A program made the position numbers and the translations under genes. A stretch of DNA of 64,000 nt from Squalus acanthias (lineage: Eukaryota): positions 3,784,001 to 3,848,000 of the forward strand of contig JASTWF010000033.1 of assembly GCA_030390025.1 (NCBI GenBank). The letters run 5' to 3'. Positions 34,528 through 61,243 of this stretch are shown piece after piece. The first letter of the stretch is position 1, and the number at the start of each line of letters is the position of its first letter. The notes under the pieces were generated by a model. It saw nothing but the letters and a program-made list of their open reading frames with translations. It was not told the origin of the DNA and searched no databases.

Positions 34528-35552
34528 TAAAGAGAGCGCAAAGGCTCTGTTTGAAGAATGGACTCATTCGACAATATTTTGTGGACTTTATTGGATTTTT
34601 GTGAGGGTATTTTCCCTCTGATGGGATCACCCTGTGTTACTATGTGGAAAACTGGTTTGTTAAAACTCCAGAGAACACATGGCAGATGGCTGTGACAAAA
34701 CAACTGTCAGTCATCCAGAATATGCAAAAACACCTCTCACTTCCATCTGAAATGAGAAGCAGAACAATGAACCCACTGGCATAGCCAGCCGGAGAGGAGC
34801 CCGTTTTGCCCAACACAAAGACTGAGAGATGTCCCAGACTTAGGGCCATTAGTCCAATCATGGAATACTCATGGGTCTGAGGATGACCCATCAATGATTA
34901 AGCACCGTAGTGCTTAGAAACAAAATGATTTTAAAGATTCGCTGGATAGATAGGGTTAGCGAGACTCCTGTAAAGATAGACCCTTTCCCACCATTCTCTC
35001 TCTCGTTCTCGCTGCACCAAGATCGACCTAACAAGAAGACCAGAGGAAGAAGCAGCTAAGTGGAGCGATCGAGACCGACTGCCTGTGGGGGTAATTATGG
35101 TCTCGAGTGTCCCAAACCGGTAACCAGAGTGCTCAGAGTTTTTTCTCAGAAGTGAAGCATTTGGGATATTCCAAGGATGGGAGCTTTGTTTGGTTTAGAC
35201 AGGATAAAAGGGCTTATGCGACTGGGTAATTCATTGGTAGGGCTGGAATTAGAGTCCACCATAGCAATAAGGGAATTGCTGTTGTCATAGTCCTCAGTTT
35301 TGTACTGTATGTATGTTGTTTGTAACCTGGATTTTATTCACCACAGAGGCAGAGATTTCGTTTAGTAGTGAATGTTTAGCCAGTGTATGTTAGACCAAAT
35401 ACATATAAGCTTGAATTTTCACTGAAACATTCCTGTCCGCGACTTATTTCATTTACACTCTGAATAATAATTCCCGGTATAGAACTTTCGAAATGCGGGG
35501 GCGATTCGAACCGTCCATCCAGCAATTGGGCTAGGATCAAACACCACTTACA
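34528..35552 (+). repeat. Outer provirus 5' LTR (~1025 bp)
   Basis: Aligns with 55593-55952 plus 60566-61243; ends CACTTACA directly before the PBS. Confidence 0.9.
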
Positions 35553-35556
35553 TCTC

Positions 35557-38665: not shown

Positions 38666-38669
38666 GAAA

Positions 38670-40481
38670 ATGGCGACCGCGGCAGGACACTGGCAGCGAG
38701 AGGGTAGTGTGTTAGACTTTGGAATGACTGTACGAAATGTTATGCAGGAAAAGATAGCAGATTATGTGTTTGGAAAGGTTAATCTAACTAAGAAATGGAT
38801 AAGTGAATTGTTAGCGGATAAAAGCCCGTTAGAGGCAGCCGAAAGGTGGACAGATAGTAAAGAACATAGAAAGACACTTGAGAAAGCAGTCTGGCTTATG
38901 TGTTACAAAAGGCAGGTTCAGATTTCAAACCAGACCATTACAGCGCTAGTAGCCCGAATCAGTCATTTAGAGGGAGAAATGGATGAGCAGGTTTATGGAG
39001 GGGAGGTGCTCATTAAGAATTTAAATGAGTTACACCAAGAAAGCCAGGAAGTCTCCAGTCACCTTAAAACAAGGATAGATTATCTCGAGTGCCAGGTCAC
39101 TGAGGCGAAGGTGAATGAGAGCAGGTTAAAGGAAAGATGTAACCGCCAAGCTGCCCAGATAAGAACTCAAGAAGAGAGCTTAACGGGGGTTAGGGCGGCA
39201 TATAAGTTGGCCCTTGAGGATAAGTTTGAGGGAGCCGACCATAGTGCCTGCCAAAGGGAGATAGAGCACCTCAAGAAGGCCGTAAACAAAGCGAACGGCA
39301 TGGTGTGCCTTATCAGTCCGTCAGCACACCAGCCGTTAGTAAGTGAGAAGTTTAAGAAATCCCCACCAAGCAAAGCAGAAGAAGTAGTAGCCACTGCGCC
39401 CTCCGCGCCACCCAGCTATTCGGAAACCTGGGTTAGGGAGGAAGCAATGGAAGAAACAAAAGAGCCCATTGAGAAAGAAGTATGAAAGGGACCGTTGTAT
39501 CCAGTAACGGGCATTAAAAGGGGCCCAAGCAGAAACGGTGGGGAAGAACCGGGGGATCTCCTCGGACAGCTGGTGTTGCCTCACAGTTCACATCAGCTGA
39601 GAGCTATGATAAATCACGTACGGAAGCTGACCGAGTCAGACGACCCTTCCGTACATTTCAGAGAAGTTGAGCAAGCCGCAGCCATTAACGGCTGCGATGA
39701 TGGGGAAACAGCAAAAATGCTGCTGTTCTCATTAGACAGCTCGGTCCTTCAGTGTCTCTCAGGCGAGAGCAAGAGGGGAACCAAGAGTTATGAGGAATTA
39801 AAGAATGAGGTCCTGGAAGTGTTGGGGGCGAACGATGAAGGTCCGTTTGCTAGAGTGGGACAGACAGTGCAGATGGAGGGAGAACCCCCGAAGGTTTTTG
39901 CCGACAGGCTGTGGCCAGTATATGAGCGCAGCTGTCTAGGTGCGCCCGAGCGCGAAGATGTGGAAAGCTTAGCTTTAACTCATTGGCTTAGGTGCATAAT
40001 AGCCAACAGTTTACCAGCCGTCAGAGAGCAGGCAAAAGCATGGTTTGATCCCAATGACCCCAACATTACGGAAGAGTCGGTCTTGAATCGACTCACGTTA
40101 GGATATCACAATATAAGGGGTATGGCAACACGTCCCCTTAAGGGAAGAGTACATGAGGTACGACCCGCAGCCCCGTATCAAAGAGAGTGGCATCAGGAGG
40201 GTAATCGCACCCCACAGGCAGGTAATGCTTGTTACGGGTGTGGGAAGACAGGGCACTGGCGCAAGCATTGCAGGAACCCTTGGAAGGATTCCAAGGATAA
40301 AAATCCCGCGGTCCGAGCCCAGGCGCCTGTCCCGGCTAAGGAAGCTAAGGCACCCACCCCTCCCGACGACCTCGAAGTAGTGTTAGGAGCCATGCGCAAT
40401 CTAATCTTGAGTGCACGTGGACAGGTGGCGGTCGCAACCGGCCCCGTAGGTGCCGCAGGACCGTCTAATAGTACCCAATGA
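38670..40481 (+). pseudogene. gag: Inner gag (~600 codons) with a single in-frame TGA at 39483-39485
   Basis: ORFs 38670-39485 and 39495-40481 share a frame; coiled-coil N region, PSAPPSY late-domain-like motif, capsid-like region and CCHC knuckle CYGCGKTGHWRKHC. Confidence 0.9.
38671..38688 (+). promoter_or_regulatory. Primer binding site (tRNA-Arg(UCG)-like), inner provirus
   Basis: TGGCGACCGCGGCAGGAC, 18 nt, 5 nt downstream of the LTR; same PBS as the outer element. Confidence 0.85.
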
Positions 40482-41603
40482 CTAGAGCCCACGCAGCCTG
40501 CCTACCTGTGTCTTTTTAAAAGACACGCACAGGAGGGGGTCTGCGGTGAGGAGGCCAGGTTAAAAGAGCAGGCCTTGCGGGAGGAGAACGCCCGCTTAAT
40601 AGGGAAAATAGATGGGCTGGAAGGGCAGCTTAGAGAGCAGGCCCTGCGGGAGGAGAACGCCCGATCAATGGGAAAGTTAGACGTGCTCAGGCTAGAAGCG
40701 CAGCTTAGTGAGATAAAAGCAGCCTACAGGGTAGCCAAAAGCCGGGAGTATGAGGATGTAAACCAATGCAAACTGTACCAGCCAGGTGCGCAAGGGAAAA
40801 CTACAGGGGTAAATCCCGCCAACGGGAAAGCACAGCCCCAGGTAGGACCACAAGGCACACAGGCAGGCATAGCAGCTTGCATCAGGGGAAGGGACATCCC
40901 GGACGATCATGCAGCGTTTTTCTGGAATTGGGGGTAAGATGAGGAAGAATTCAGGGTACCCGGGTCTGATGAGGATAGTGCAGATGAGGATAGCGATGAC
41001 GACGGGTGGTTTCGGAGGAACGGTCCCTTTTACGATATGGAAGGGACAGGGGCTGCAGGTAGAGATCCACACAGGGTGGACACACGAGCTGCAGGTCCCG
41101 AAGACAGGAGGGAGGAGCTAGGGGAGGCGGGGCCAGCCGCTATGGGAGCACAGAGAGTACCGGTGTGGCTCCCAGAGATGTGGCCGCCCGCTTTGAACGT
41201 CCCGTCCTTGGGGGAGGCGGAGATCACGAGTGAAGGGCCGCCTGCTGGGCCGAGCAGGGCGGGGCCACAAACTGCAAGCCCCGAGGTTAGGGAGGCGGAG
41301 TCAGCGGAGGCGGAGCCAGCGACTGTGATGGAACCCCAGGTCATCCCGATGGAAGTCTCGGAACCCGGTCCGTCCGTCACGGAACCCCCGCCCATAGCAA
41401 CTCCCCGTAGGTCAAGTAGAGAACCCCAGCCCAGGAGGATGTGGTCATGTCCCCAGACTGCCCCAAGGCGTAGAGTTAAGGTTAAGATAACCCAGATACA
41501 GGCCGGCCACATCGCGGCAGCAACAGGCTGCGGCAGATCGGAGGGAAGTGTCAGTGCCCTCCCACCGTCGGGAAGAGCTCGCAGCAGCCTTCTCAGAATT
41601 TAA
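40482..41603 (+). other. ORF-X: ~373-codon non-enzymatic frame in the pol position, in frame with gag, with one internal TAA (40935-40937)
   Basis: Translates LEPTQPAYLC...REENARL...REENARS...AAYRVAKSR...WNWG*DEEEFRVPGSDEDSADEDSDDDGWF...RRSSREPQPRRMW...; ORFs 40575-40937 and 41037-41603 are both in the gag frame. Confidence 0.7.
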
Positions 41604-41866
41604 AGGGGCCGCCCTGAGAACGGGCGGCACTGTAAAGTTATTAGTTTTAAGTTTTAAGTAAATAGTTCAAGGTTAAGTTTGTAGTGTTTTTAACAGAAAA
41701 CGATAAAATGATGGGAGCTTTAAAGATAGGTTTAGTTAAAGTTTATTCAGCGAACGTTGAAGTTTACGTGAGGCGAGGTCAGGGGACCCGCTCACCCTTC
41801 ACAAAAGCCAGAGACTCTTGCGAGGCTGGCTACCTCATTCTATCTGATCACAGGAACCAAGGAAGG

Positions 41867-44218
41867 ATGGAACGAATTCTAGTATTGCTCGTGGCAATCG
41901 GATGTGGATTGGCCTATCGAGGCCGCACCAAGGATGTCGTGGTGTTTGGATGTTCCGGGGATGCGGCCCCCATCGCGGTGGATGGGACCGGAAGACGGGA
42001 GGCAGAGGAGACCAGCACCTATTTCCACAAGGGAAGGTGGCCAGGATGGCTAGGAACGAACTCAACGGAGTATTCTAGCACATCGGGGTTTGCCTACAAA
42101 GAGACTTCTTTACTGTGCCCCAAAGTAAGGATCATCGCACCCAGGATCAGCGTCACCGTCGGCAAACGGATTTGTTTGACTTGTAGTGGGAAGGTCCCAT
42201 TGAGCCGATGGTGGTGGCTGCGAAAGCTGAGCAAAACTATGAGGAACTCTTCGGTCGAGTGGGAACGACTGGGTAATAATACCCATCGGACAATTACGGG
42301 GACAAACGGACAAGTGAAAGTCTGTTGGGACAAATGGTGGGAACCGGACGAGGGAATTTATGTATGTATGTGGGGGTCAAAGTACGTTTGCCCCAAAGGC
42401 ATCTCCATATTTTTCATTAATCAATGGCAGGATAACGGACAGGGGATGAGGTGGGATGCGAGCACCAGGGGGTGCGGAGCCCCATTCTCCCCGATCCCAG
42501 TAAATGCCACTGAGCTCATTGCGCGCCCACGCAAAGCCCCGCCCACGATTCCGGTGGTTCTAGCTAAGGAAGAAGGGTGCCCTAAAACTAGTAAGGGACC
42601 CGGGAATGGTTTGGTACTGGTCCCCACAGACCAGATACTATTTCAGGGAGTACATTACGCGGTGGCCTCGGTGATTTTAAATCTCACCGAGGTGCGGTTA
42701 CCAGAGTGGTGCCCCAAATAGACGGAACAGTTGTATCAGGTCCTGTTGACCAAGATGTTCAGACAATTTTACGAATTCGATTTCGCGGAAATTGATAAAA
42801 CAAGTTTGTACACTGCACCACAGGAAGTTTTGAATCAAGCAGGGAGGCAAAGAAGGGGTTTGGTGAACGATGCGTTCACTGCTTTTAACACAGGTACATC
42901 TGTGGTCAACGCTCTAGACAGTGTGGAGCTGCAGACCCAGATTAATGGTTTAAAGACACAATTAAAAGACATTCTAACAGATGAGAATAAAGTGGTAGGG
43001 TCGGGTCTACACGAGGACCAAGCCATGACTCTCCATTTAAAGGAAATTATAGCAGAGTTGGAGAAACATGCAAAGACGGTAAATGCCCTGATTAGGGAAG
43101 ATCGGAATGCATCCGACCAAGCTGCGCAGAACGAGGTGTGCGTGCTTTACGGGGCGTGGTTACTGGGCGAGGGCCGCAGTAATTTGGAGGATTTAAAACA
43201 AGGTTTGGTTCCGTCCTGGATAAGTAACAAACACCTGCGGGCGCTCCACCCTTTTCAGAACGCATTAAGTCCGTGCCAGCTCAGGCTAGCTTCAGAAGCT
43301 TACCCAGTCCCCGTGGACTGCGGACGTTCAAACCATACTATTATGGGAATAGTATTACGTATGCCGGTTTTGGGCGACACAGCAAAGCCCGCCCCGGTGT
43401 ATCGGGTAGAGAACATTGGTGTCATTCAGGGGGGAGCCCACATTCGTTATGCAGCGGTTCCACCTTACGTCATCCGCTGGGAGCAAACGATGACAGGTAC
43501 AGATCTCTCTGGTTGTCGTGGCAGGGGAGCACACATAATACTGTGCCCCCAGCACTTGAATGCCTTTTTAACACCACAGTGCGGGTTCAGAACGACTGGC
43601 GCCAAGTCCATGAATTGCACCATGGAGGCAATGGCACAAGATCATGTGCCTCCGCAGGTAGCATACATCGGGGGTGGAACATATTGTGTTACCACTGCAG
43701 CGCAACACTACCAGCATGGAAACCGTAGCCGGTGTCCGGTGAGTGACAGCAGTTTCTGTTTTAAACCCAGGGCGGAAGTTCAAGTAGCACAACAGCGAAT
43801 TATCCCAATCCCTGAACCATCCACTGTTCATCTCACAGTAAAAGAGAATTTCACCGACTTGCAGCGATTCGTCGCGCATTTTGGATACCTCATTCCCCCT
43901 CTCCCTGAACACCTCACCAAACTTTTAAAAGCCGTCGCGGTGTCACAGAAACATTTTTACACATTAGAACAGAAAACTGTCGAAATAGGAACAGACATTT
44001 TGGATATAGTAGTTCCACCGTGGTGGAATCTGTTCACCAATATTGAAGTGCCTTCATGGATCAGAATAGCCTCCTACATTTTAGTCGTATGCCAAGTGTT
44101 TATTGTAGTGTACCTATTGGTCGTACATTGTAAAAGAGACAAACGCCTCACTAAGCATGAAAACACGGGAGAGTGGCGAGAACGTTACGTGCGCGTGCAC
44201 GATGAAAGCACCGTGTAA
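41867..44218 (+). pseudogene. env: Inner env (783 codons): signal peptide, Ig-like domain, furin site, class I fusion module and TM anchor; single in-frame TAG at 42719-42721
   Basis: MERILVLLVAIGCGLA signal; RQRR|GLVNDAFTAFNTGTSVVN at 42845 onward; heptad ELQTQINGLKTQLKDIL; Cys-rich region; TM IASYILVVCQVFIVVYLLVV; candidate splice acceptor ...CTGATCACAG ending 41853. Confidence 0.9.
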
Positions 44219-44659
44219 TCGGAAAATGGCGTCACTCCCGCTCGCCACGTGCGTCGCGGAAGTTTGTACTCGATCATGATTTTCAGAGATTGTAAATACG
44301 TTGGGAACTCGACATGTTTTAAGAGTTGGTGTTGATTATTTTGGTGATGGTGTTACAGTTAGAATTGATTGTTTGGTTTTGGGTTTTGTTTTTCCTTTCC
44401 CTGAATAAAAGATGAATATACAGGTGATACGAGAGGCATCGGCCTGGTTACGCCGGGAAGGAAAACAAGTGGTGTAAGTTTAAGGGCAAATAATGCCTAC
44501 GGTGATATAAAATGTAATTTTCTTGGGAAATAAGGACGACACAGAGACCCTAGTTAGGTTAAAGTTATGGGATTAATTTGCTGGATTCGGAGAGAAATCG
44601 AGATAATATTGCTCACCACTATGATTTTTGATACGATAAGCGGAGTTATTCGCATCAAC

Positions 44660-44668
44660 AGGAGGGAC
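44660..44668 (+). promoter_or_regulatory. Short polypurine tract before the inner 3' LTR
   Basis: AGGAGGGAC|TGTAG; the outer element has GGGGGAC|TGAAG at 55586-55592. Confidence 0.75.
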
Positions 44669-46280
44669 TGTAGAATTCGCAATATATCGCGATTTTATTA
44701 ATAAGGAGAAAACACAGAGTTTCGTTCGGACAGCTTTTGTTTCAGCGGAATGCTGACAGGTTTAAAGTGGACACAAGCGGCCTGTGGGGTGGCCGCCGCA
44801 CCTCGTGACAGAACATTCTGGACTTTTCAACGGGCAGACAGGATGGCGTTCCAATGGACATTTGTGTAGGATCGATTGGGATTCAGCACAGTGAAGATAG
44901 TACACGAGACATTATGGGTTTGCAGTATACACATAAATACTGAAATCGGTCTCCCAGGTACAAATGAAAGCCATTGTACCGAGTAATCAAGGGCCCATCC
45001 AGGGGACATTAATATGTAAAATCCCAACGACTCTACGATGAGAGAGCCGTTGGCAGGTAGTTGTGCAAGACACTTGGAAGCCCCAGGACCCCTCCGGGGA
45101 GAACACCGACCGATTTAACAATGGGAGAAATATTGACAGGTGCTCAGACATTTACGAGTAGCCCCGAAGCCCATTGGGAGCGGAGATCACCCATGCGGGA
45201 CATTTGAGCGCCAGACCCTAAACAAAAGAATGGACATTATAGTTGGGCGGGAAACGGAAGATTTTGCACTATAATTGCAGGCTCCAAACCGTCCATCTTT
45301 CTCTTATCCGATCGATTCGTAACCTCGTGGCTGCTCCTGTGTACTCGTAGCTGGGCTCCTGCTTGCCTGTTGCCTCTTTTGAAAAGGACTGTTGAACTTT
45401 CTGATCCGTTCGGATCTACCTCGTGTCGCGTAACGAAGACCTATATTGGTAACCGGTATCGGAACCAAAGGCCCGAGAAGAGATGAGATGAGATGAGATG
45501 GGAAGAGACGAAGACCATACTTATCGCCACGGTCAGTAAGCCCCGACCGCGCCTGTAGGTCGAATTGACATTTTCCTTGCCAGGAAGACTTCTTCGAAAG
45601 AACGGACACCGGGAAATTCTTTTCTTAAGTATTGACTGGAATGTGAAAACCACCAATACAGATCTTCATCACAGCAGACGGTCCGGCCTGCTAGCCGGAG
45701 CAGCAGAAGCAAGTAAACAAGTGGGACCAGGAGATCTCCTGACCGACACGTGGGTGCTGCGGTGAAAAACATCCGATCAGCTATTCGGAATTTCTCCGAG
45801 TTATCACGAGTGGTGAGCATGAGTCTCGAAATCCTACGAATCTAGTTTAGGATAGATATTGATAGGGGAGGGTTTAAGGATTAAGGATATTTGTAATGTG
45901 TGCCCCTATTTACTATGTGCCGTTCGTTCCTCGTTTCCCTAAGATCGACTATATAACTGTTTGTAAGATTGTACTGTCATTAATCTGTGCTTATGACATG
46001 TATTTCATAATCTTAAGTATCATGCTATAAAGATTTTCCATTTCGTACCATTCAACCGAGTCTACATGAGTTTCATCTCCATTACTGCTCTCGCATCTAA
46101 GTCCAGTGTCTAGAACCGTAAGGGCGAGTGATTCGAACCACTCACAGGTGTGTCTAGTGTTCCCAGACTGGCTGGAGACCAGAACAGGCAACAAGGCCTA
46201 GACCCGCACTGACATACAGGCTGCACAGAGCCGCGTGAATCTCACAGGCTGCGAGACACGCAGGGTCAGAATCCCTTACA
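44669..46280 (+). repeat. Inner 3' LTR (1612 bp)
   Basis: Direct repeat of 37054-38665. Confidence 0.97.
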
Positions 46281-46284
46281 TGCG

Positions 46285-46511
46285 GGAGTAAAGGGCACTG
46301 GAGGAAAGACTGCCCAGTCTCTGACAAAAGGAGCGGGAAAGGGGATCCTCCAGCGCCAGTGCAGAAAGCCGCAGCTGTGGCAGGAAGCAGCACTGATCCG
46401 TTCGCGGTATTAGTGGCTGCTCTCCGCGCAGTCTTTCCGGCAGGGCAGGGTAGGGTGGACGCGGCAGCGGGCAGCGTACTCCCATCCCCCCCGAACAATC
46501 CCGACCCATGA
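46285..46511 (+). pseudogene. gag: Outer gag 3' end (rest of the zinc knuckle to the TGA stop)
   Basis: GSKGHWRKDCPVSD...PNNPDP*; rejoins 37053 in frame when the insert and one TSD copy are removed. Confidence 0.9.
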
Positions 46512-48614
46512 CTGGGGTCTTCTCAGCCCGTTTACCTGTGCCCACTAAGTTATGATGCTTGGAAGGGACTGTGCGTGAAGATGGGGGTGGAGAAGGTGCA
46601 AGGGACCTATCTGCTGGACACTGGAGCTTCAAGCACCGTTGTCTATGCGGATAACCCGACCACATCACCTCTATCGAATGGGGTCCCATATAACTTAGTA
46701 GGGTTCACCGGGAACGAACAGGCTGGGTCTTTCTCCATCCCACTACCCATCGATCTGGCTACACTCTGTACGGAGTGGATGTGTGTCCGGATGCGGTGGG
46801 AGCGGGAGGGAATAGGCATTTTGGGGGCAGACTTCATACTGGCCCACAAGATATTGGTGGATTTCCGGAATCACTGTCTTTGGGAGGCAGTGTGCACGGG
46901 GAAGGAGAAGGAGGTGATAGTTATACCAGGGAAGCAAGGCAAGGGAACCGTGTGTACGATGAAGCCCAAGGATAGTTATGACCTTGAACTTTTGGTCACT
47001 TCTACCCCGGCGGAGTACATAGCAGATGTGCGAGCCAACCTCGCGGCATTCGCTACACAGAAGCACGACTGTGGGAGGGTAATAGGGGTGGAGTTCAGAG
47101 TAGAAGGAGACCCCATGGCCAGACCACAGAAACAGTACAACTTCCCCAGATAGGCAGAGGCAGATTGAGAGACGGCTTTGGGACCACTGGTTGAGCAGGG
47201 TGTGTTGAGACCCATAGCGACCCATGTGAACTCTCCGATTTGGCCAGTTAGGAAACTGGACAATTCGTGGAGAGCCACTGTGGACTATCAGGTTCTTAAC
47301 AAGAACATCCTAGGCCTGTGCCCCCACCATTGCAGCCATAGCCGACCTGATCGGGATTATCACGGCATTCGCGAAAACATTCACAGTGCTGGACATTTCG
47401 AACGGATTCTGGTCTATCCCTCTCAAAAGGGAGGACCAGTATAAATTCGCATTTACTTTCAAGGGTCAGCAGTACACATGGACCTGCCTCCCCCAAGGGT
47501 TTCATAACAGTCCTTCTATTTTCCACCAATATATGGCCAACTGTTTAAAAGGGTTCAGCAGACAGCAGCGGCTTGTACAGTACGTGGACAACTTGCTCTT
47601 GTTCTCCAACGAGGGGGAGGAGCATGGCCCCCTGCTGGCTGAGCTTCTGAGTCTGTTAAAGGAAGCTGGGTTCAAGGTTAATCCCAAGAAAGCACAGATC
47701 GGCCAGCAGGACATAAACTTCCTCAGGCTGACCATACGTGCTGGGGAGAGGGCCATCGATGAGGCGAAAAGGAAGGCGGTACAGGAGCTACCTGCCCCGA
47801 CCACGATAACGGAGGTAAGATCCTTCCTGGGACTCACAGGATATTGCAGGGATTTCATAGAGGACTATGCCGCTACGGCAGCTCCTCTACTCCGGCTCCT
47901 TCACAAGGGAGTGGGATGGGTGAGGGATGAGGACTGCATGGCAGCTTTTAGTCGTCTGTAGAGAGATTTGCAGACCGCAGCGGCTTTAGGAGCGTTGATG
48001 GGGGGAAGGAGTTATTTTTGGAGGTAGCTGCCACAGGGGAGAGTTTGAGCGCAGTGCTGCTCCAGGAGCGGCATGGCAAGCTAAGGCCTGTGGTATACTC
48101 ATCAAGAATCCTCACAGATGTAGAGAGGGGGTACTCCAATTGTGAGAGGCACCTGCTTGCCACACATTGGGCCGTGAGGAGATCACAAATCTTCACGGTG
48201 GTGTCCCCGTTAACTCTCTTAACCCATCATTAGCCCACTCAGATGCTTCTGGATGGGAGGATAAAGGACGGCACGGTGAGCAGTGCACGCATTGCTCGCT
48301 GGACTTTATTGCTCTCTCAAACAAATTTGAGAGTGAAAGGCCTCTGTGAGCCCAAGCTCGCCGCAAATTTGATCTACCCAGGGGTGGCCAAAAATGTTCT
48401 GTTGAAGGGGTATGGGACGTAGAAATAGGGTTTCGGGCTGGGATCCATGTAGACGGGCCCAGTACAGTGGTGGCAGGGGAGCAACTCACTGGAAGCAGGA
48501 TTTTTGACCCAAAGGCAGGCAATGCCAAGGCTTTTACACTCCCGAGCACCATGAGCGCCCAGCAAGCTGAACTGTCGGCGGTGGTGTATGTGGTTACTCA
48601 CCCCGAAGTGTACC

Positions 48615-50365
48615 ATAAGAACATAAGAACATAAGAAAAAGGAGCAGGAGTAGGCCAATCGGCCCCTCGAGCCTGCTCCACCATTCAATGAAATCATGGC
48701 TGATCTGATCCTAACCTCAAATCTAAAGAACACAAGAAGTAGGATCAGGACCCGGCCACTCAGCCCCTGGGCCCGCTCCGCCACCCACAGGGCCTCGACC
48801 GATCCGAACTCAGCCTCATGTCCAATTTCCAGCCCGCTCCCCGTAACCCCTAATTCCCTTTACTTCTCGGAAACTATCTATTTCTGTTTTAAATTTATTT
48901 AATGATGTAGCTTCCACAGCTTCCTGGGGCAGCAAATAACAGAGACCTACTACCCGCTGAGTGAAGAAGTTTCTCCTCATCTCGGTTTTGAAAGAGCAGC
49001 CCCTTATTCTAAGATTATGCCCCCTAGTTCTAGTTTCACCCATCCTTAGAACATCCTTACCGCATCCACCCGATCAAGCCCCTTCACAATCTTATATGTT
49101 TCAATAAGATCGCCCCTCATTCTTCTGAACTCCAATGAGTAGAGTCCCAATCTACTCAACCTCTCCTTATATGTCCACCCCCTCATCCCCGGGATTAACC
49201 GAGTGTACCTTCTTTGTACTGCCTCGAGAGCAAGTATGTCTTTTCTTAAGTATGGACACCAAAACTGTACGCAGTATTCCAGGTGCGGTCTTACCAATAC
49301 CTTATATAACTGCAGCAATACCTCCCTGTTTTTATAATCTATCCCCCTAGCAATAAAAGCCTTCTTGATCACCTGCTGCACCTGCATCGTAACTTTTTGA
49401 TTTTCTTGCACGAGGACCCCCAGATCCCTTTGTACTGCAGTACTTTCCAGTTTCTCGCCATTAAGAAAATTACTTGCTCTCTGATTTTTCCTGCCAAAGT
49501 GCATAACCTCACATTTTCCAATATTGTATTGCATCTGCCAAATCTCCGCCCACTCACCCAGCCTGTCTATATCCCCTTGTAGGTTTTTTATGTCCTCCTC
49601 ACTTTCTACTTTACCTCCCATCCTTGTATCATCTGCAAACTTTGATATGTTACACTTGGTCCCCTCCTCCAAATCGTTAATATAGATTGTAAAGAGTTGG
49701 GGTCCAGCACCGATCCCTGCGGAACACCACTGGCTACTGGTTGCCAGTCCGAGAATGAACCATTTATCCCAACTCTCTGTTTCCTGTTAGATAACAAATC
49801 CTCCACCCATGCCAGAATATTACCCCGAATCCAATGATTTTTTATCTTGAGCAATAATCTTTCATGTGGCACCTTGTCGAATGCCTTCTGCAAGTCTAAA
49901 TACACTACGTCCACTGGTTCCCCTTTATCCACCCTGTACGTTATCTCCTCAAAGAACTCAAGCAAATTTGTCAGACATGACTTCCCCTTCAGAAAGCCAT
50001 GCTGACTTTGTCCTACTAAATTAAGTTTATCTAAATGTTCCATTACTGTCTCCTTAATAATAGACTCCAAAATTTTACCCACCACAGATGTTAGGCTAAC
50101 TGGTCTATAATTTCCAGCATTCTGCCTACTTCCCTTTTTAAATAAGGGTGTTACTTTAGCAGTTTTCCAATCTGCCGGGACCTTTGCTGAGTCCAGGGAA
50201 TTTGGGAAAATTATCACCAAAGCATCCACAATCCCTACTGCCACTTCCCTCAAGACCCTAGGATGAAAGCCATCAGGCCCAGGGGATTGATCCGCCTTGA
50301 GTCCCATTATTTTACTGAGTACCAATTCCTTAGTGATTTTAATCGTATTTAGCTCCTCCCCTATA
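48615..50365 (-). mobile_element. 5'-truncated CR1 (family B) inserted in the RNase H of the outer pol
   Basis: (CATAAGAA)n tail, RT motifs, close to the CR1 at 55952-60565; candidate TSD GTACC at 48610-48614 / 50366-50370. Confidence 0.93.
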
Positions 50366-50832
50366 GTACCTACGGCCTATAATATTTGCTCGGACAGCAT
50401 GTTCACTTGCAATTCTTGTACAGAATATTTAGCCATTTGGTCTCATCGCGGGTTCACATCTGCAGACGGCAAACCCCTAGCAACAAAGCCATTGTTGCAA
50501 CAGATCATAACATCGATAGGAACCGAGGGGGAATTCTATATCCACAAAGTCAAGGCCCATTCAAAGGCGGAACCCCTTGCGGAGGGCAATCAGCAGGCCA
50601 ATGTGATGACCAAAGAGGGTGCTCGAACGGGCACGTTTTGGGATACATATGGTTCGAGTCAGGTAGCAGCGATCAGAGACAGGGGTGGGGCCTAAGGGAG
50701 TGCAGGGGTAGCATTGGCCCCGGACCTAAAGATTGTCCAGGCACGGAATCCCGTCCTAAAGACTGTTCTGGAGACGCTGGCTAAGGGAGATAAGGTAGAG
50801 CGTCCATACGGAGTGGCAGGTATCTCGGTAAA

Positions 50833-52277
50833 TACGTAGTACCATTATTCAAGAAGGGTGGTAGGGATAAACCAGGGTTATTACAGGCCATTGAGCCTAA
50901 CATCAGTGGTAGGGAAATTATTGGAAAACATTCTGAGGGACAGAAATAGTCTCCACTTGGAGAGGCAAGGATTAATTAAGGATAGTCATCATGGCTTTGT
51001 CAGGGGGAGATCATGTCTGACCAATTTGATTGAATTTTTAGAGGGGGTGACTAGTTGTATGGATGAGCGTAGTGCAGTTGATGTAGTCTACATGGACTTC
51101 AGTAAGGCATTTGACAAAGTCCCGCATGGGAGACTGGTCAAGAAGGTAAAAGCCCATGGGATCCAGTGCAACTTGGCACATTTGATCAAAAATTGGCTTA
51201 GTGGCAGGAGGCAGAGGGTGTTGGTCGAAGGTTGTTTTTGTGACTGGAAGCCTGTGTCCAATGGTGTACCGCTAGGATCGGTGCTGGGTCCTTTGCTGTT
51301 TGTAGTGTACATTAATGATTTAGATATTAATGTAGGAGGTATGATCAGTAATTTCGCAGATGACACGAAAATTGGTGGGGTGGTAAATAGCGAGGAGGGA
51401 AGCCTCCGGCTACAGGATGATATAGACGGGTTGGTTAGATGGGCAGAACAGTGGCAAATGGAATTTAACCCTGGGAAGTGTGAGGTAATGCATTTTGGGA
51501 GGACTAACAAGGAAAGGGAATACACAATGAATGGTAGGTCCCGAGGAAGGACAGAGGATCAGAGGGACCTTGGGGTGCATGCAAATAGATCCCTGAAGGC
51601 AGCAGGACAGGTTGATAAGGTGGTTAAAAAGGCATATGGGAAACTTGCCTTCATTAGCCGAGGCATAGAATATAAGAACAGGGAGGTAATGATGGAGCTG
51701 TACAAAACGGTAGTTAGGCCAAAGCTGGAATACTGTGTGCAGTTCTGGTCGCCACACTATAGGAAGGATGTGAGTTCATTGGAGAGGCTGCAGAAGAGAT
51801 TCAACAGGATGTTAACTGGGCTGGAGCGCTTCAGCTATGAAGAGAGACTGGACAGGCTGGGGTTGTTTTCCTTAGAGCAGAGAAGGCTGAGCGGGGACCT
51901 GATTGAGGTGCACACAATTATGAGGGGCATAGATAGGGTAGATAGAAAGGAACGTGTCCCCTTAGCAGAGGGGTCAATATCCAGGGGGCATAGTTTCAAG
52001 GGAAGGGGCAGGAGGTTTAGAGGGGTATTGAGGAAAATCTTTTTCACCCAGAGTGTGGTTGGAGACTGGGACTCACTGCCTGAAAATGTGGTAGAGGCAG
52101 GAACCCTCACAATATTCAAGAATTATTTAGATGAGCACTTGACACGCCACAGCATACAAAGCTACGGACCAAGTGCTGGAAAATGGGATTAGAATAGACA
52201 GGGCTTGAAGGCCGGCGCGGACACGAGGGGCCGAAGGGCCTCTTTCTGAGCTGTATAACTCTATGACTTTATGACTC
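50833..52277 (+). mobile_element. 5'-truncated CR1 (family C) inserted upstream of the integrase; RT frame 50858-52192 still open
   Basis: RT motifs with FADD; (CTATGACT)n tail; TSD TAAA at 50829-50832 / 52278-52281; removal restores pol ISVKEGMVFRGEQWAVP. Confidence 0.93.
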
Positions 52278-53806
52278 TAAAGGAAGGGATGGTTTTCAGA
52301 GGGGAACAGTGGGCAGTTCCGCAGCAGCACCGGAGAGAATTCCTTCAGTTGGCCCACGAGGGTCCAGGAGCGGGTCACCCCAGGCCGGAGACCACCTGGC
52401 AATGGGTGGAACAGGCAGGGTGGTCGCCGCAACTGAGGGAGGACGTCCGCGACTTCTGCGCGGATTGCTTGGTGTGTGCTGCAAACAACCTTGACCCCCA
52501 AAAAAGAAAGGTATCCATGGGACACAGTCGGAGAGTGGAGGGACCATGGCAGTCCATACAGGTCGATTATATCGGACCGCTGCCCACCGCGCAGGGGGTT
52601 ACAAATACTGCCTGGTCCTGGTGGATGTGTTCTTTCAATGGGTAGAAGCCTTCCCATGCCGAACAGCCACAGCTTTGTGGACCGCAAGGATTCTAGTGAG
52701 AGAAGTGTTCTCTCGAATACCACGGTATGTGGAGTCCGATCAGGGGATTCACTTCACATGTGTGTCATGCAGGCGACTCTGAAGATGCTCGGTGTAGAGG
52801 GTAAATGGCACGTCGCACACAACCCGCAGTCATCGGGGATTGTGGAGCGGATGAATAGGACCATCAAGGAAAGGTTACGGAAGGAGACGGGAGACTCGCC
52901 TAGAAAATGGGCGGAGGTTTTGCCGTTAGTTCTGATGGGGGTCTGAGCCAGCCCGTCTAGAAGCACAGGGCATTCCCCGCATGAGCTCGTGACTGGCAGG
53001 GTCATGAGGACGCCCAGCCATGTACTGGCCCCGGTTCTCACGGAAGGTCAGTTGAGAGAGGTGAACCGGGACAGGTTTGTTAAGAATTTATTTGAGCATC
53101 TCAGAAAGATCCATTGGCAGGCTGCCAGTAACATTGGGAAGCAACATCGTAGAAATCGCTTATTGCTTGAGCCTCAGAGGCAACACGAGTGGAAGGTCGG
53201 AGATCAAGTAATGGTTAGAAACTTCTCCAGGGTAGGGACTTTTGAACCGCTATACATGGGACAGTACAGTATCGTGGATATTGCAAGTCCGATGGTATAT
53301 GCGATCAAAATGCCTCGACGCACTAAGTGGTTCCATATCAATCAGTGCAAGCTTTTCAACCCTGGGGAAAGAGCTGATAAGAGGAGGAAACAGCAGGGAG
53401 TGGTGAGCTGCGCTACAGGTGTGGGTCTCCAGCCAATAATCTGGGACTGTGAGGAGCCCACAGAGGGACCAGTCGTTCCGTCTGTGGGGGCAGGAGTGAG
53501 AAGGAGTGCCAGGATCCCACAGCCGAGGGAGCCGTGGACGCCTCCTTACACACCGTTGAACGAAGGAAGCCGGAGTCGTAATAGGCTCAGGGTCGAGGAG
53601 ACCTAGTGTGGCCACCCGGAGACTGGTGGCGCTGTACATAACTTCTTTCTCTCCTGTCTGTTGCCTTAGCTTGTCTGTATAGTTTGGATTTACATGTATG
53701 CTGTGGATACCAAATGTAATCGTGTGTAGCTGCGTCTGGAAAGGTGAGGAATCACCCAAGGACAACGTTGCATTCTGTGTCTTTTCAGAGAACGCCTAAG
53801 AACAAG

Positions 53807-55027
53807 ATGAAGTCAGCCATGGTCGTCCTGAGCATCATGATTGAAGCCAGCGCGAGTCACAGGGGCGACACCGAGGAATCGGTTATCTTCGGCTGCACCG
53901 GCGGAGACGGACCGACCGTGACTACTGGAGGTGGCTCGAAGGATGGGGCGAGCGTCTATCTCCACGAGGGAAGATGGCCTGGATGGCTGGGGTCGAATTC
54001 CACCCGGTATTCCAGCCATGACAAGTTCACCAATGGTGAAGCGTCCATCCCATGCCCGAGAATAGGGGTTACCACCTCCCGGGTTAGGGTAACAGAGGGT
54101 AAACGGGTGTGCCGTAGCTGCAGGGGACACATTCCACTGGGAAGGTGGTGGTGGCTCAGGAAACTGAGCGCGGATACAGGGGACCAGACAGCTGACTGGG
54201 AAATACTAAGTAATGACACGGGTTCTCAGGGAGGAGTGAATGTTTGTTGGGATAAGTGGTGGGAATCCGAAGAAGCGCTTTATGTGTGTATGTGGGGGTC
54301 GGAAAAGATCTGCCCAGCGGGTGTGTCGATGGCGTTTAAGAGACACCGGGGCTGGGATCGGTTGGGATCGGAGTGTGGACTCCTGTGTGATCCCAATACC
54401 CCCGAACACCATCAACGCCACAGAGCTCATCTCATGCACCAGGAAGCCCCCGCCCAGAGCCCCGACGGTACAGACGGCTGTAGATGGGTGTCCCACCACC
54501 ACCAGTGGTCCAGGGAATGGGTTGGTGTTAATCCCGACTGACAAAGTGTTGTTTCAGAACGTGCTCTACGCCGTGGCATCCGTGATCCTGAACCTGACTG
54601 AAGTCCATCTGCCTGTGTGGTTTCCAAGGAAGACGGAGAAGCTTTATGAAGCTCTGTTAAAAGCGATGTTTCAGGATATTTTATGAACTGGACTATGGAA
54701 ATGTAGAGAAAGAACAGCTTTATAAGCTGAAAGTTGGGGACAGTGTGGGGTCCGCGAGGCAGAGAAGAGGGACCTGGAACAATTACTTTTCTGCCGGATC
54801 ATCTCACTGAGTTAATAAAGACCGTTGAACTCTCCCAGAAATTTTTTTACACTTTGGAGCAAAAGACAGTAGAAGTGGGTGAGGAGATCAAGGGGATTGT
54901 CTCACCACCATGGTGGGACATCGGTCTGAGTATAGAGATTCCTCCCTGGATCCGCATCTGTTCCCATGCATTAGTTATCTTACAATTGTTGATTGTAAGC
55001 TACTTGTTCTACACCAGCTGCAGGTGA
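53807..55027 (+). pseudogene. env: Outer env, frameshifted and with a ~1-kb internal deletion
   Basis: Homologous to the inner env (GRWPGWLG.NST.YSS, WWWLRKLS, CWDKWWE, GPGNGLVL.PTD); RQRR|G at 54757-54771, then a jump to LPDHLTELIK...FYTLEQKT...PPWW...TM; acceptor CTTTTCAG ending 53788. Confidence 0.88.
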
Positions 55028-55592: not shown

Positions 55593-55952
55593 TGAAGAGA
55601 TCACAAAGTCTCTGTTTGAAGAATGGACTCAGTCGAGAATATTTTGTGGATATTATGGGATTTTACTGAGGATATTTTCCCTGTAATGGGCTCACCTGGG
55701 CAGATATGTGAAAAAGTAGTTTGTTAAAACTCCAGAGAACGCATGGCAGTTGGCTGTGACAAAAGAACTGTCAGTCATCCAGAATATGCAAAAACTCTTC
55801 TCACCTCCATCTCAGAAGAGAAGCAGAACAATGAACCCAATGGCCTAGCCAGCCGGAGAGGAGCCAGTTTTTCCCAACACAAAGACCGAATTATGTCGCA
55901 GAATTAGGGCCATTAGTACAAACACGGAGTACACATGGGTCTGATGATGACC
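55593..55952 (+). repeat. Outer 3' LTR, first part
   Basis: Follows the PPT; aligns to 34528-34888. Confidence 0.9.
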
Positions 55953-56190
55953 ATAAGAACATAACAACATAAGAAATAGGAGCAGGAGTAGGCCAATCGG
56001 CCCCTCGAGCCTGCTCCGCCATTCAATAAGATCATGGCTGATCTGATCCTAACCGCCAATCTACTATCTTTCACAGAACCATCTCCTGCATCTAACAGAA
56101 TTGCACACACGAAATAGGAGCAGAATCAGGCTACACGGTCCCTGGGCCCGCTCCACTACCCACAGGGCCATGACCGATCCGAACCTAGAC

Positions 56191-59142
56191 TCACGTCCAA
56201 ATTCCTGCCCGCTCCCCATAACCCTTAATGCCCTTTACTTCTAGGAAACTGTCTATTTCTGTTTTAAATTTAATTAATGTTGTAGCTTCTACAGCTTTTT
56301 GTGGCAGCATATTCCATGGACCTACCACCCTCTGAGTGAAGTAGTTCCTCCTCATCTCAGTTTTGAAAGAGCAGCCCCTTATTCTAAGACTATGTCCCCT
56401 AGTTCTCGTCTCACCCGTCATCGGGAACATCCTCCCCGCATCCACCCGATCCAACCCCTTCACAATCTTATATGTTTCAATAAGATCGCCTCTCATTCTT
56501 CTGAACTCCAATGAGTAGAGTCCCAATCTACCCAACCTCTCCTCATATGACCACCCCCTCATCCCCGGGATTAACCGAGTGAACCTTTTTTGCACTGCCT
56601 CGAGAGCAAGGATGTCTTTCCTTAAGTAAGGACACCAAAACTGTATGCAGTATTCCAGGTGCGGTCTCACCAATACCTTGTACAACTGAAGCAATACCTC
56701 CCTATTTTTATATTCTATCCCCCTAGCAATGAAAGCCAACATTCCATTTGCCTTCTTAATCACTTGCTGCACCTGCATACTAACCTTTTGAGTTTCGTGC
56801 ACCAGGACCCCCAGATCCCTTTGCACTTCAGTACTCTCCAGTTTCTTGCCATTAAGATAATAAATTGCTCTAGGATTTTTCGTGCCAAAGTGCATCACCT
56901 CACACTTTCCAGTGTTGTATTCCATCTGCCAAATCTCTGCCCACTTACTTAGCCTGTCTATGTCCCCTTGCAGGTTTTTTATGTCCTCCTCACTCACTAC
57001 TTTCCCTCCCATCTTTGTATCATCTGCAAATTTTGATATGTTACACTTGGTCCCTTCCTCCAAATCGTTAATATAGATTGTGAAGAGTTGGGGACCCAGC
57101 ACTGACCCCTGTGGAACACCACTAGTTACTGATTGCCAGTCTGAGAATGAACCATTTATCCCAACTCTTTGCTTTCTGTTAGATAGCCAATCCTCTATCC
57201 ATGCCAGAATATTACCCCCAATCCCGTGATTTTTTACCTTAAGCAATAATCTTTTGTGTGGCACCTTGTCAAATGCCTTTTGGAAGTCTAAATACACTAC
57301 GTCCACTGGTTCCCCTTTATCCACTCTATATGTTACTTCCTCAAAGAACTCCAGCAAATTTGTCAAACATGACTTCCCCTTCGTAAAACCATGCTGACTT
57401 TGTCCTATTAAATTATGATTATCCAAATGTCCTGTTACTGTTTCCTTAATAATGGACTCCAAAATTTTACCTACCACAGATGTTAGGCTAACCGGTCTAT
57501 AGTTACCAGCCTTCTGTCTACTGCCCTTTTTAAATAAGGGTGTTACATTAGCAGTTTTCCAGTCTGCCGGGACCTTAGCGGAATCCAGGGAGTTTTGAAA
57601 AATTATTACCAATGCATCTACAATCCCTACCGCCACTTCCTTCAAGACTCTAGGATGTAAGCCATCAGGTCCAGGTGATTTATCCGCCTTGAGTCCCATT
57701 ATTTTACCGAGTACCACTTCCTTAGTGATTTTGATCGTGTTTAGCTCCTCTCCCCCTATAGCCCCCTGTTTGTCCAGTGTTGGGATATTCTTAGTGTCCT
57801 CTACTGTAAAGACTGATACAAAATATTCATTCAGTGTTTTTGCCATCTCCATATTTCCCACCATTAATTTCCCGGTCTCATCCTCTAAGGGACCAACATT
57901 TACTTTAGCCACCCTTTTTCTTTTTATATAACTATAAAAACTCTTACTATCTGTTTTTATATTTTTTGCTAATTTACTTTCATAATCTATCTTCCCTTTC
58001 TTAATCAACCTTTTTGTTATTTTTTGCTGCCTTTTAAAGTTTTCCCAATCCTCTGTCCTCCCACTAGATTTCGCTACCTTATATGCCCTTGTTTTTAGTC
58101 GAATACTATCCTTAATTTCTTTACTTAGCCACGGATGACTGTCCTTTCTTTTACACCCTTTTCTTTTCAGTGGAATATATTTTTTTTGGAAGTTGTAAAA
58201 TAACTCCTTGAATGTACACCACTGATCATGTGTCGTCTTACCCTTTAATCTATTTTCCCAATCCACTCTACTCAATTCCGCTCGCATACCTTCATAGTCT
58301 CCTTTATTCAAGCTTAGCACGCTTGTTTGAGATCCAACCTTCTCACCCTCTAATTGAATATGGAATTCAACCATGTTATGGTCACTCATTCCAAGGGGAT
58401 CCTTTACTAGGACATTTTTAATTAATCCTGTCTCGTTACACAGGACCAGATCTAAGGTTGCTTGCCCCCTGGTCGGTTCAGTTACATACTGCTCAAGAAA
58501 CCCATCCCTAATACACTCAATGAACTCATCCTCAAGGCAGCCCTGCCCCATTTGATTTGTCCAATTAATATGATAGTTAAAATCCCCCATAATTATAGAT
58601 GTTCCCTTATTACATGCCTCAACTATTTCCTGATTGATACTCCGTCCAATAGAGTTGCAACTGTTCGGAGGCCTATAGACTACGCCAACTAATGTTTTTT
58701 TCCCCTTATTATTCCTTATCTCCACCCAAACTGTTTCATTATCATGATTTTTTGACCCAATATCATTACTCTGTATTACAGTGATTCCTTCCTTTATTAA
58801 CATAGCCACCCCACCTCCCCTTCCTTCCTGCCTGTCCTTCCTGATCGTTAAATAACCTGGTATGTTTAATTCCCAGGCATTGTCACCCTGTAGCCATGTT
58901 TCTGTAATGGCCACAATATCATAACCATATGTAGTTATTTGTGCCATTAACTCGTCTATTTTGTTACGAATGCTACGTGCATTCAGATAGAGAACTTTCA
59001 AATATGCTTTGTGGCACTTAGTTCCTGCTTTTTCACTTTTTACCAGTTTACCTTTTACTCCACACACTCTGTCCCTTCCTGCCACGCTCTGATTTGTGAT
59101 TCCCCTACTGCTACCTATGTCTATGACCCTCTCTGTTGTCAT
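56191..59142 (-). CDS. CR1 ORF2p, APE endonuclease + reverse transcriptase (983 aa), uninterrupted
   Basis: YLNARSIRNK, ITETWL, MGDFN, SDHN; YRPVSLTS, QHGF, DFQKAFD, GVPQGSVLGP, FADD. Confidence 0.96.
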   Translation of the reverse strand: MTTERVIDIGSSRGITNQSVAGRDRVCGVKGKLVKSEKAGTKCHKAYLKVLYLNARSIRNKIDELMAQITTYGYDIVAITETWLQGDNAWELNIPGYLTIRKDRQEGRGGGVAMLIKEGITVIQSNDIGSKNHDNETVWVEIRNNKGKKTLVGVVYRPPNSCNSIGRSINQEIVEACNKGTSIIMGDFNYHINWTNQMGQGCLEDEFIECIRDGFLEQYVTEPTRGQATLDLVLCNETGLIKNVLVKDPLGMSDHNMVEFHIQLEGEKVGSQTSVLSLNKGDYEGMRAELSRVDWENRLKGKTTHDQWCTFKELFYNFQKKYIPLKRKGCKRKDSHPWLSKEIKDSIRLKTRAYKVAKSSGRTEDWENFKRQQKITKRLIKKGKIDYESKLAKNIKTDSKSFYSYIKRKRVAKVNVGPLEDETGKLMVGNMEMAKTLNEYFVSVFTVEDTKNIPTLDKQGAIGGEELNTIKITKEVVLGKIMGLKADKSPGPDGLHPRVLKEVAVGIVDALVIIFQNSLDSAKVPADWKTANVTPLFKKGSRQKAGNYRPVSLTSVVGKILESIIKETVTGHLDNHNLIGQSQHGFTKGKSCLTNLLEFFEEVTYRVDKGEPVDVVYLDFQKAFDKVPHKRLLLKVKNHGIGGNILAWIEDWLSNRKQRVGINGSFSDWQSVTSGVPQGSVLGPQLFTIYINDLEEGTKCNISKFADDTKMGGKVVSEEDIKNLQGDIDRLSKWAEIWQMEYNTGKCEVMHFGTKNPRAIYYLNGKKLESTEVQRDLGVLVHETQKVSMQVQQVIKKANGMLAFIARGIEYKNREVLLQLYKVLVRPHLEYCIQFWCPYLRKDILALEAVQKRFTRLIPGMRGWSYEERLGRLGLYSLEFRRMRGDLIETYKIVKGLDRVDAGRMFPMTGETRTRGHSLRIRGCSFKTEMRRNYFTQRVVGPWNMLPQKAVEATTLIKFKTEIDSFLEVKGIKGYGERAGIWT

Positions 59143-59180
59143 TTTTATTTTTTGCTCTCTTGAAACCTCCCCCCCACTAA

Positions 59181-60137
59181 TTAGTTTAAAGCCCTCTCCA
59201 CAGCCCTAGTTATTCGATTCGCCAGGACACTAGTCCCAGCACTGGCCAAGTGAAGTCCGTCCCAACGGAACAGCTCTCTCCTGCCCCAGTACTGTTGCCA
59301 GTGTCCCAAGAAGCAAAACCCATTTTTCCCACACCAGTCTTTGAGCCACGCATTCAACTCCCTGATTTTATTTACCCTAGCCAAATTTGCTCGTGGCTCA
59401 GGTAGTAATCCAGAGATTATTACCCTTGAGGTTCTGCTTTTTAATTTGGCCCCTAGCTGCTCAAACTCCCTCAGCAGAACCTCTTTCCTTGTCCTATCTA
59501 TGTCATTGGTACCAACATGGACCACGACAACTGGATCCTCCCCCTCCCACTCCAAGTTTCTCTCCAGCCCAGAGGAGATGTCCTTAACCCTGGCACCGGG
59601 CAGGCAACACAGCCTTCGGGACTCTCGCTCTTGGCTGCAAAGAACCCTATCTATCCCCCTAATGATACTATCCCCTACCACTACAACATTTCTTTTTACT
59701 CCCCCCACTTGAATGGCCCCCCTTACCACGGTGCTGTGGCCAGGTTGCTCATCCTCCCTGCAGTCCCCGCTCCTATCCACACAGGGAGTAAGAGCCTCGA
59801 ACCTGTTGGACAAGAGCAAGGGCTGCGGCTCCTCCAACACTACCTCCTGGATCCCTGTACATGCCTCACTCGTAGTCACACCTTCCTGTCCCTGACCACG
59901 GGCTACTTCTGAATTAGTTACTCTAATTGGTGTGACTACCTCCTGAAACACGGAGTCCAGGTAACTCTCCCCCTCCCTGATGTGTCGCAGTGTTTGAAGC
60001 TCGGACTCCAGCTCATCAACACGGAGCCGGAGTTCCTCGAGCAGCCAACACTTACTGCAAATGTGTTCACCGTGAACATCAATGGTGTCCACCAGCTCCC
60101 ACATATTGCAGCAGTAACACATCACCTGCTCTCCCAT
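59181..60137 (-). CDS. CR1 ORF1p (Cys/His motif, leucine zipper, SGNH esterase-like), 318 aa, uninterrupted
   Basis: CYCCNMW...HICSKC, LRLRVDELESEL, VVGDSIIRG, HVGTND and DGLHL motifs. Confidence 0.94.
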   Translation of the reverse strand: MGEQVMCYCCNMWELVDTIDVHGEHICSKCWLLEELRLRVDELESELQTLRHIREGESYLDSVFQEVVTPIRVTNSEVARGQGQEGVTTSEACTGIQEVVLEEPQPLLLSNRFEALTPCVDRSGDCREDEQPGHSTVVRGAIQVGGVKRNVVVVGDSIIRGIDRVLCSQERESRRLCCLPGARVKDISSGLERNLEWEGEDPVVVVHVGTNDIDRTRKEVLLREFEQLGAKLKSRTSRVIISGLLPEPRANLARVNKIRELNAWLKDWCGKNGFCFLGHWQQYWGRRELFRWDGLHLASAGTSVLANRITRAVERALN

Positions 60138-60344
60138 TCTATGTAATTAATTAAAAATGTATTATTTACCCTTCAGTTAATTTATGCCAGCAGTCTCTGC
60201 TACACCACAGATACCCGAGAAACAATAAAATTGAAGTTTTGTATAAAAAAAAAGAAATACTCACCAACCAATCACTTACCTGCTTTCTGGTGACGTCACA
60301 CTTCGATTATTTTTTACCTCTCTCCTGCTCTCGGCTTGGTGAAA

Positions 60345-60565
60345 GCCTACCTGGTCGCTGCCGCCTTTTACCGCCGCCGCCTCGCCGCTGTTGCTCCACC
60401 CAGGTCCGCCGCCTCTGTGGGCCTACCTGGTCGCTGCCGCCTTTTACCGCCGCCGCCTCGCCGCTGTTGCTCCACCCAGGTCCGCCGCCTCTGTGGGCCT
60501 ACCTGGTCGCTGCCGCCTTTTACCGCCGCCGCCTCGCCGCTGTTGCTCCACCCAGGTCCGCCGCC
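60345..60565 (-). repeat. ~3 tandem 76-bp GC-rich monomers at the CR1 5' end
   Basis: GCCTACCTGGTCGCTGCCGCC recurs at 60345, 60421 and 60497. Confidence 0.92.
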
Positions 60566-61243
60566 AATTACTGATTAAGCACGGGAGTGCTTAGAAACAA
60601 ACGGAATTTAAAGATTGGCGGGAAAGATAGGGGTAGCAAGACTCCTATAAAGATAGATCCTTTCCCACCATATCTATCTCTCTCTGTCTCTCTCTCGCCC
60701 CAACAAGATCGACCTAACAAGAAGCAGTACCAGAGGAAGAAGCAGCTCAGTGGAGCGATCGAGACGGACTGTGTGTGGGGGTAAGCATGGTCTAGAGTGT
60801 CCCAAGCCGGTAACCAGAGGGCTCAGAGTTTTTCTCAAAAGTGAGGCTTTTGGGCTATTCTGAGGGTCGGAGCTTCCTTTGGTTCAGCCAGGGGAAAGGG
60901 CCTTATGCGACTGAGTAATTTGTTGGTAGGGGTGGAATGAAGTCCACCATAGCAACAAGGGAATTGCTGCTTGTCACAGTCCTCAGTTTTGTACTGTATG
61001 TATGTTGTTTGTAACCTGGATTTTATTCTCCACAGAGTCAGTAATTTCGTTTAGTAGTGCATGATTTAGCCAGTGTATGTTAGACCAAATAAATATAAGC
61101 CTGATTTTTCACTGAAACATTCCTGTCCGTGACTTATTTCATTTACACTTTGAATAATAATTCCCGAGTGCAGAACTTTCGTAAGGCGGGGGCGATTCGA
61201 ACCGTCCATCTAGCAATTGGGCTAGGATCAAAAACCACTTACA
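60566..61243 (+). repeat. Outer 3' LTR, second part
   Basis: Aligns to ~34889-35552; ends CACTTACA. Confidence 0.9.

Follow-up and report, generated by a model that had tools for sequence, protein, structure and literature searches.

Organization of the two proviruses

The window studied here is a stretch of 64,000 nucleotides of repeat-rich DNA from the 3.7-Gb genome of Squalus acanthias (contig JASTWF010000033.1, positions 3,784,001–3,848,000 of the forward strand), which contains two endogenous retroviruses, one inside the other. The old outer provirus occupies the positions 34528–61243 on the plus strand with the order protease–reverse transcriptase (RT)–tether–RNase H–integrase–env, and a young inner provirus (37054–46280, +) is inserted in its gag gene. 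A sequence-only reading of the region 46512–55027 had regarded both elements as lokiretroviruses (Loki) on account of two RNase H-type domains and an envelope protein (Env) similar to the fusion protein F of Mononegavirales. We suggest instead that they belong to a retrovirus family of cartilaginous fishes which combines a canonical RT with an F-type Env.

The outer copy is a dead endogenous provirus and as a locus ordinary. Canonical traits of Retroviridae are present, namely the arrangement long terminal repeat (LTR)–gag–pol–env, a primer binding site (PBS), a polypurine tract and a short target duplication. The 5′ LTR (34528–35552, +) matches the two pieces of the 3′ LTR (55593–55952 and 60564–61243, +) with 86.6% over 359 nt and 87.3% over 683 nt; the LTR ends with CTTACA and the flanks are TATA and TATG. 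The PBS (35558–35575, +) is of the tRNA-Arg(TCG) type, as its complement fits the 3′ end of the host tRNA-Arg(tcg) genes predicted by ARAGORN at both loci scanned. The 5′ part of gag (35464–37053, +) with coiled-coil and capsid-like regions is broken but colinear with a relative in the same genome (L021), and the 3′ end of gag follows at 46281–46511 (+) with an in-frame TGA at the gag–pol junction.

The pol gene (46512–53606, +) carries stops, frameshifts and two insertions of long interspersed elements (LINEs) which we take to be of CR1 type from their anatomy. The protease and RT (46512–47960, +; stops and one frameshift) include the motif LPQGFHNSP and are followed by the tether, a degenerate Ty3-type RNase H (47960–48390, +), which matches PF17917/PF17919 at 48000–48230 (E 2.5e-13) and reads LEVAA and LTHH at what we presume to be the positions of the acidic residues of Ty3 RNase H. 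The second RNase H is split, as the earlier reading had claimed: its N-terminal part (48430–48611, +; VDG and SAQQAEL) is separated by a 5′-truncated LINE (48612–50369, −) from the C-terminal part, which together with the start of the integrase region lies at 50370–50832 (+) and in 50370–50692 contains SDS, KVKAH and GN (PF00075, E 3.8e-10). Thus, the succession of two RNase H-type domains, integrase and env after the RT is confirmed and so are these motifs, apart from HVDG, where the window copy has a short deletion and all three relatives checked read IYVDG. In natural relatives from the same genome PF17917 and PF00075 occur together in one open Pol frame. A second LINE piece (50833–52269, +; ∼12-nt target duplication) precedes the frameshifted integrase (H2C2, rve and SH3-like domains; 52270–53606, +). 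The outer env (53807–55027, +) is frameshifted as well; a deletion of ∼378 codons in its fusion core has removed the furin site together with most of the fusion subunit. In all, the provirus is cut by three CR1 LINEs; the third separates the pieces of the 3′ LTR and is a full-length minus-strand element (55950–60563) with an open ORF2 (1004 aa) and an esterase-like ORF1 (PF13472).

The inner provirus (37054–46280, +) has 1612-nt TG..CA LTRs with 5 differences, a TGCG target duplication, a gag gene with one CCHC knuckle and an env gene, and is devoid of pol. Among 12 loci of the inner family (L101–L112) pol is present in seven and absent from five, as in the window copy. The pol genes of these siblings share ∼76% identity with the outer family; both elements therefore belong to one lineage. 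In its own genome the RT finds at least 150 matches of 80–100% identity, 150 being the number scored among 15,751 candidates, and all 86 scored matches to the C-terminal half of the inner Env are 99–100% identical, most of them in long open frames; by these sequence comparisons the members of the inner family are numerous and of very recent origin. The inner insertion can be dated roughly to 0.7–7 million years with host rates of 2.2e-10 to 2.2e-9, the lower of which is the assumption of a previous study (PMC4422223), and the outer insertion is, again by rough estimate, some tens of times older.

Beyond this genome, species-labelled Env homologues come from sawshark, skate and catshark only, and all matches of the Env family are to elasmobranch-labelled or unlabelled records. 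The Pol proteins nearest to the family in other genomes are predicted ones from frogs and coelacanth annotated as 'NYNRIN-like' (P0007–P0012; 39–46% identity), which were compared by Pol; their RT forms a clade with the window family (support 93/98), and the frog prediction P0007 continues into the Ig-like beginning of an env. In a sawshark gene model named Niban 1-like (P0005), which is probably a prediction artefact, the first ∼250 amino acids are those of the family Env.

The window also contains two satellites (3–6806, 18-nt unit ×377; 22296–34526, 29-nt unit × ∼400), the latter of which borders on the start of the outer provirus. Amid LINE fragments lies a single-frame rhodopsin-family receptor (12826–13908, +; PF00001). 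Elsewhere in the genome tRNA genes form long tandem arrays with a period of ∼1623 nt (G000:C26, ∼39.0–42.2 Mb), and the 3′ pattern of tRNA-Arg(TCG) has 424 exact matches genome-wide.

Placement of the reverse transcriptase and tether

Loki is defined by the position of its RT (PMC7947760). Our RT tree comprises 48 rows with natural references, among them three Loki-type contigs, whose RTs fit the Loki rows of that study and one of whose Envs matches PF00523; the other references are the snakehead retrovirus (SnRV), whose RT also fits its row there, and foamy, gamma, epsilon and delta records. In this tree Loki (three rows, 100/99) is the sister of a canonical clade of 33 rows (100/99) which holds the window RT. 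An RT clade of the family with Loki is rejected by the approximately unbiased (AU) test (p = 0.0025), as is a clade of the wider 10-row lineage with Loki (p = 0.016). In addition, the window RT has the motif LPQG found in the SnRV, foamy, gamma and epsilon rows, whereas 24 of 24 Loki RT rows (dataset S3) have PFG. Judged by its sequence, the RT is thus canonical-retroviral and outside Loki, and membership in the lokiretroviruses has to be given up. Within the canonical clade SnRV scores best with 223 bits, compared with 175 bits for Loki, and in the best tree, a tree without ERV-L rows, it is the sister with a support of 71/16; a clade with the foamy viruses is not rejected (p = 0.145).

The tether tree agrees with the RT on a placement apart from Loki (97/90) and puts the lineage outside a clade of SnRV, epsilon and gamma (97/94). 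The tether scores highest to Loki (82 versus 42 bits), a likeness that, judging from the tree, which does not show kinship, is one of slow decay. Two further assignments are not supported. The RT is not among the gypsy elements and the RNase H is not single, which speaks against Ty3/gypsy (Metaviridae). In foamy viruses Pol is separate from Gag and Gag has no Cys-His box; the in-frame TGA junction and the CCHC knuckle argue against membership in this group.

RNase H, integrase and gag–pol junction

In the RNase H tree, which is unrooted and carries a long-branch warning, the lineage groups with Loki and foamy viruses (98/94) and not with SnRV, epsilon or gamma; within this group Loki pairs with foamy rather than with the window family. 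Wang & Han describe the Loki and foamy RNase H as the oldest group (PMC7947760). The integrase scores highest to Loki (210 bits, next 148, SnRV 124), and the integrase tree, which has no CGIN1 row, places Loki within the lineage with a support of 84/77, the nesting not being significant. The junction TGA-CTAG is common to the inner element, its relatives and the Loki contig L058. Gag has a CCHC knuckle as in SnRV, MLV and epsilon, whereas L058 is without one. Some Loki members have an smc-like gene; in the window family the N-terminal region of Gag is a coiled coil, for which a comparison with the Gag of Loki and SnRV gave nothing significant. The Loki PBS is a TGGTGCCCC site in two of two loci, that of the window is of the tRNA-Arg type.

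The envelope protein

The F-like Env of the earlier reading is that of the inner provirus and lies outside 46512–55027. The inner env gene (41867–44218, +) starts with an ATG at 41867 and comprises 783 codons, with one TAG at codon 285. It encodes a signal peptide, an Ig-like region, a furin site (RQRR at residues 327–330, cleavage after 330) and a downstream subunit of 453 amino acids with 12 Cys and a transmembrane segment at ∼728–755, so that the early cleavage and the long Cys-rich subunit described before are both borne out. Of the gamma-type motifs looked for in the inner Env (CX6CC, LQNR/ISD) none is present. The Ig-like region (41867–42550) gives weak, concordant matches, which are echoed in residues 1214–1291 of the frog prediction P0007; VIA gave no Ig-like signal for this region. 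Ig-type receptor-binding domains have been described for gamma-type Env (bioRxiv 2024.03.17.585361).

With a hidden Markov model (HMM) derived from 36 paramyxovirus F proteins the window Env reaches 15.2 bits over the F positions 269–374, against 3.0 for the highest of 100 shuffles and 7.1 for a partial Loki control; 15 gamma, delta and foamy Envs stay at 0.9 bits or below. The ESM Atlas neighbours of the window Env (0.93–0.96) are Gypsy-Env, Baculo_F and Fusion_gly clusters, all of the F clan where a family is given. Furthermore, a natural Loki Env used as query against the 3.7-Gb genome finds the family env as its only match (E 7.5e-4) and aligns with it over 133 columns. The similarity between the Loki Env and the family Env scores 12.6 bits against 1.2 for the best shuffle. 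Several results weigh against this assignment: the window Env has no match in Pfam, PF00523 included, or in the PDB, where hits to pneumo- or paramyxovirus F had been expected; the hhalign comparison with F is not significant; and the AlphaFold model has a pLDDT of 33.7 and no Foldseek match, so that an F fold is not confirmed. Taken together, the results support an F-type Env at the level of sequence, and the earlier claim stands to this extent.

The family Env is also carried by Scyliorhinus torazame, a species scored Loki-negative by Wang & Han, who report Loki in none of six chondrichthyan genomes (PMC7947760).

The Env of SnRV (L060:6131–9535) appears to be F-type as well. Its Atlas neighbours at 0.93–0.95 are Baculo_F, Gypsy and Fusion_gly clusters (recognition low, 1572), its motifs are colinear with the window Env across ∼400 amino acids, and its score with the F-HMM (2.4 bits, best shuffle 0.8) is weaker than that of the window Env. 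We did not find an F-type Env of SnRV stated in the literature searched; nor did this literature, with most subscription papers outside its scope, contain a report of such an Env in endogenous retroviruses (ERVs) related to SnRV or in other canonical ones outside the foamy viruses.

Discussion

The features described above suggest how an active ancestor might have replicated. Reverse transcription would have been primed on tRNA-Arg(TCG), and Gag-Pol would have been produced by readthrough of the TGA stop in the context TGA-CTAG, which we take to be a readthrough signal. The tether presumably had a structural role as linker, with nuclease activity left to the second RNase H, and integration would have generated 4-nt duplications. 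Entry might have been mediated by a furin-cleaved class I fusogen in which an F2-like segment and a long F1-like subunit are combined with a head that is predicted to be Ig-like and to bind the receptor. Being without pol, the inner copy may have been mobilised in trans by its pol-bearing siblings.

How did a canonical RT come to be combined with modules resembling those of Loki? We think it likely that the family is an early-branching canonical lineage which has retained ancestral modules common with Loki. A more far-reaching version, to which we would give slightly less than even chances, is that a deep canonical lineage extending over elasmobranchs, coelacanth and frogs keeps the ancestral toolkit, that is a barely degenerate tether, an RNase H of the Loki/foamy group, a Loki-type integrase and an F-type Env with an Ig cap. 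With the Env of foamy viruses and apparently that of SnRV also F-type, Loki and the canonical retroviruses would then descend from an ancestor that already had an F-like Env, and the gamma/beta-type Env would be a later replacement (scenario 3 of Wang & Han); in sharks this history would be readable from a very young and abundant family with mostly open env frames.

Alternatively, the family could be an ancient recombinant in which a canonical, SnRV-like gag–protease–RT–tether part was joined by one crossover after the tether to a Loki-derived RNase H–integrase–env block, or the transfer could have gone in reverse into a Loki ancestor. All 5′ markers (CCHC Gag, RT, tether tree) are indeed canonical and all 3′ markers (RNase H, integrase, Env) Loki-like; domain replacement is described as frequent among retroviruses (PMC7947760) and pol/env swaps are reported in SnRV-related ERVs (bioRxiv 2021.11.23.469661). 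However, foamy viruses belong to the RNase H group of the family as well and possess an F-like Env (PMC11468914), and the Env of SnRV also appears F-type, so that shared ancestry without a crossover suffices; moreover, the RNase H tree pairs Loki with foamy viruses rather than with the window family, and the TGA-CTAG junction, which lies 5′ of the RT, is common with Loki too. We consider such a recombination unlikely.

It is less probable still that the family is an ordinary SnRV-like ERV (clade Huo or class III) with a merely divergent Env whose likeness to F is coincidental. This would agree with the best RT match, the presence of SnRV-related ERVs in the elephant shark (PMC4422223), the fold model of low confidence and the non-significant hhalign result, but it leaves the F-HMM score far above shuffles, the concordant Atlas matches, the F-like cleavage site and subunit length without gamma-type CX6CC/ISD, and an RNase H and integrase unlike those of SnRV unaccounted for. 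Least probable of all are true lokiretroviruses, which would be the first in cartilaginous fishes: the dual RNase H, the Loki-like integrase, RNase H and Env, the TGA-CTAG junction and the coiled-coil N-terminal region of Gag would fit, but the RT motif and tree with both AU tests, the tether tree, the tRNA-Arg PBS and the CCHC Gag argue against them, and a scan of the own genome with a strict Loki RT motif pattern gave no exact match, which is weak evidence. In fact, the supposed Loki hallmark does not hold: the dual RNase H has no diagnostic value because it is a trait of retroviruses generally (PMC7947760), and an F-like Env is found in foamy viruses (PMC11468914). For annotation this means that both features together are insufficient to diagnose a lokiretrovirus.

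For the origin of the retroviral Env, Wang & Han left four scenarios open (PMC7947760) and later held that the Loki and canonical Envs are probably of different origin (PMC9040795, on Odin). This question becomes testable by phylogeny and structure with a lineage that combines a canonical RT and a Loki-related F-type Env, taken together with the F-type Env that SnRV apparently has and the foamy Env, whose structure is solved. This combination favours a shared F-like ancestor and suggests that an F-like Env is likely to be ancestral for retroviruses.

Comparison with known retroviruses

Foamy viruses (Spumaretrovirinae) provide the top PDB matches of the RT and share the RNase H group, and their Env has a solved F-like fold (PMC11468914). 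In contrast to them, the window family has gag and pol in one frame interrupted by a stop, a Gag with a CCHC knuckle, a tether that can still be recognised and a different integrase, and similarity between the Env sequences is not detectable.

SnRV, clade Huo and the class III ERVs (PMC4422223, PMC6001957) resemble the family in the best RT match, the LPQG motif and a coiled-coil and CCHC Gag. The CmiERV lineage I of the elephant shark, likened here by description only, is SnRV-related (PMC4422223). In the SnRV Env, as in that of the window family, a long subunit follows the furin site, the Atlas neighbours are F-type and the N-terminal region contains Y-x-CMW motifs. SnRV also has an in-frame gag–pol stop and what we presume to be an Arg-type PBS. 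Nevertheless, the sister relation of the RTs lacks support (71/16), the RNase H and integrase fall into other groups, the tether of the window family is much less degenerate, the stop context is TGA-CT instead of TAG-GGC, the PBS sequences differ and the SnRV Env is missed by the family Env HMM.

Loki (PMC7947760) is close in the dual RNase H, the RNase H group, the integrase type, the TGA-CTAG junction and the F-type Env, which is the closest detectable one. An Env of the Loki kind is marked by similarity to Mononegavirales F (PF00523), an RXKR-type cleavage site, a fusion peptide, a coiled coil and a transmembrane segment. The RT and tether of the window family lie outside Loki, with LPQG in place of PFG, and the family has a CCHC Gag, a tRNA-Arg PBS, a short protease–RT linker and an Env with ∼230 extra N-terminal residues including the Ig-like region. 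With an RNase H, integrase, gag–pol junction and Env that are Loki-like, the earlier reading was closer to the truth than a flat rejection would imply.

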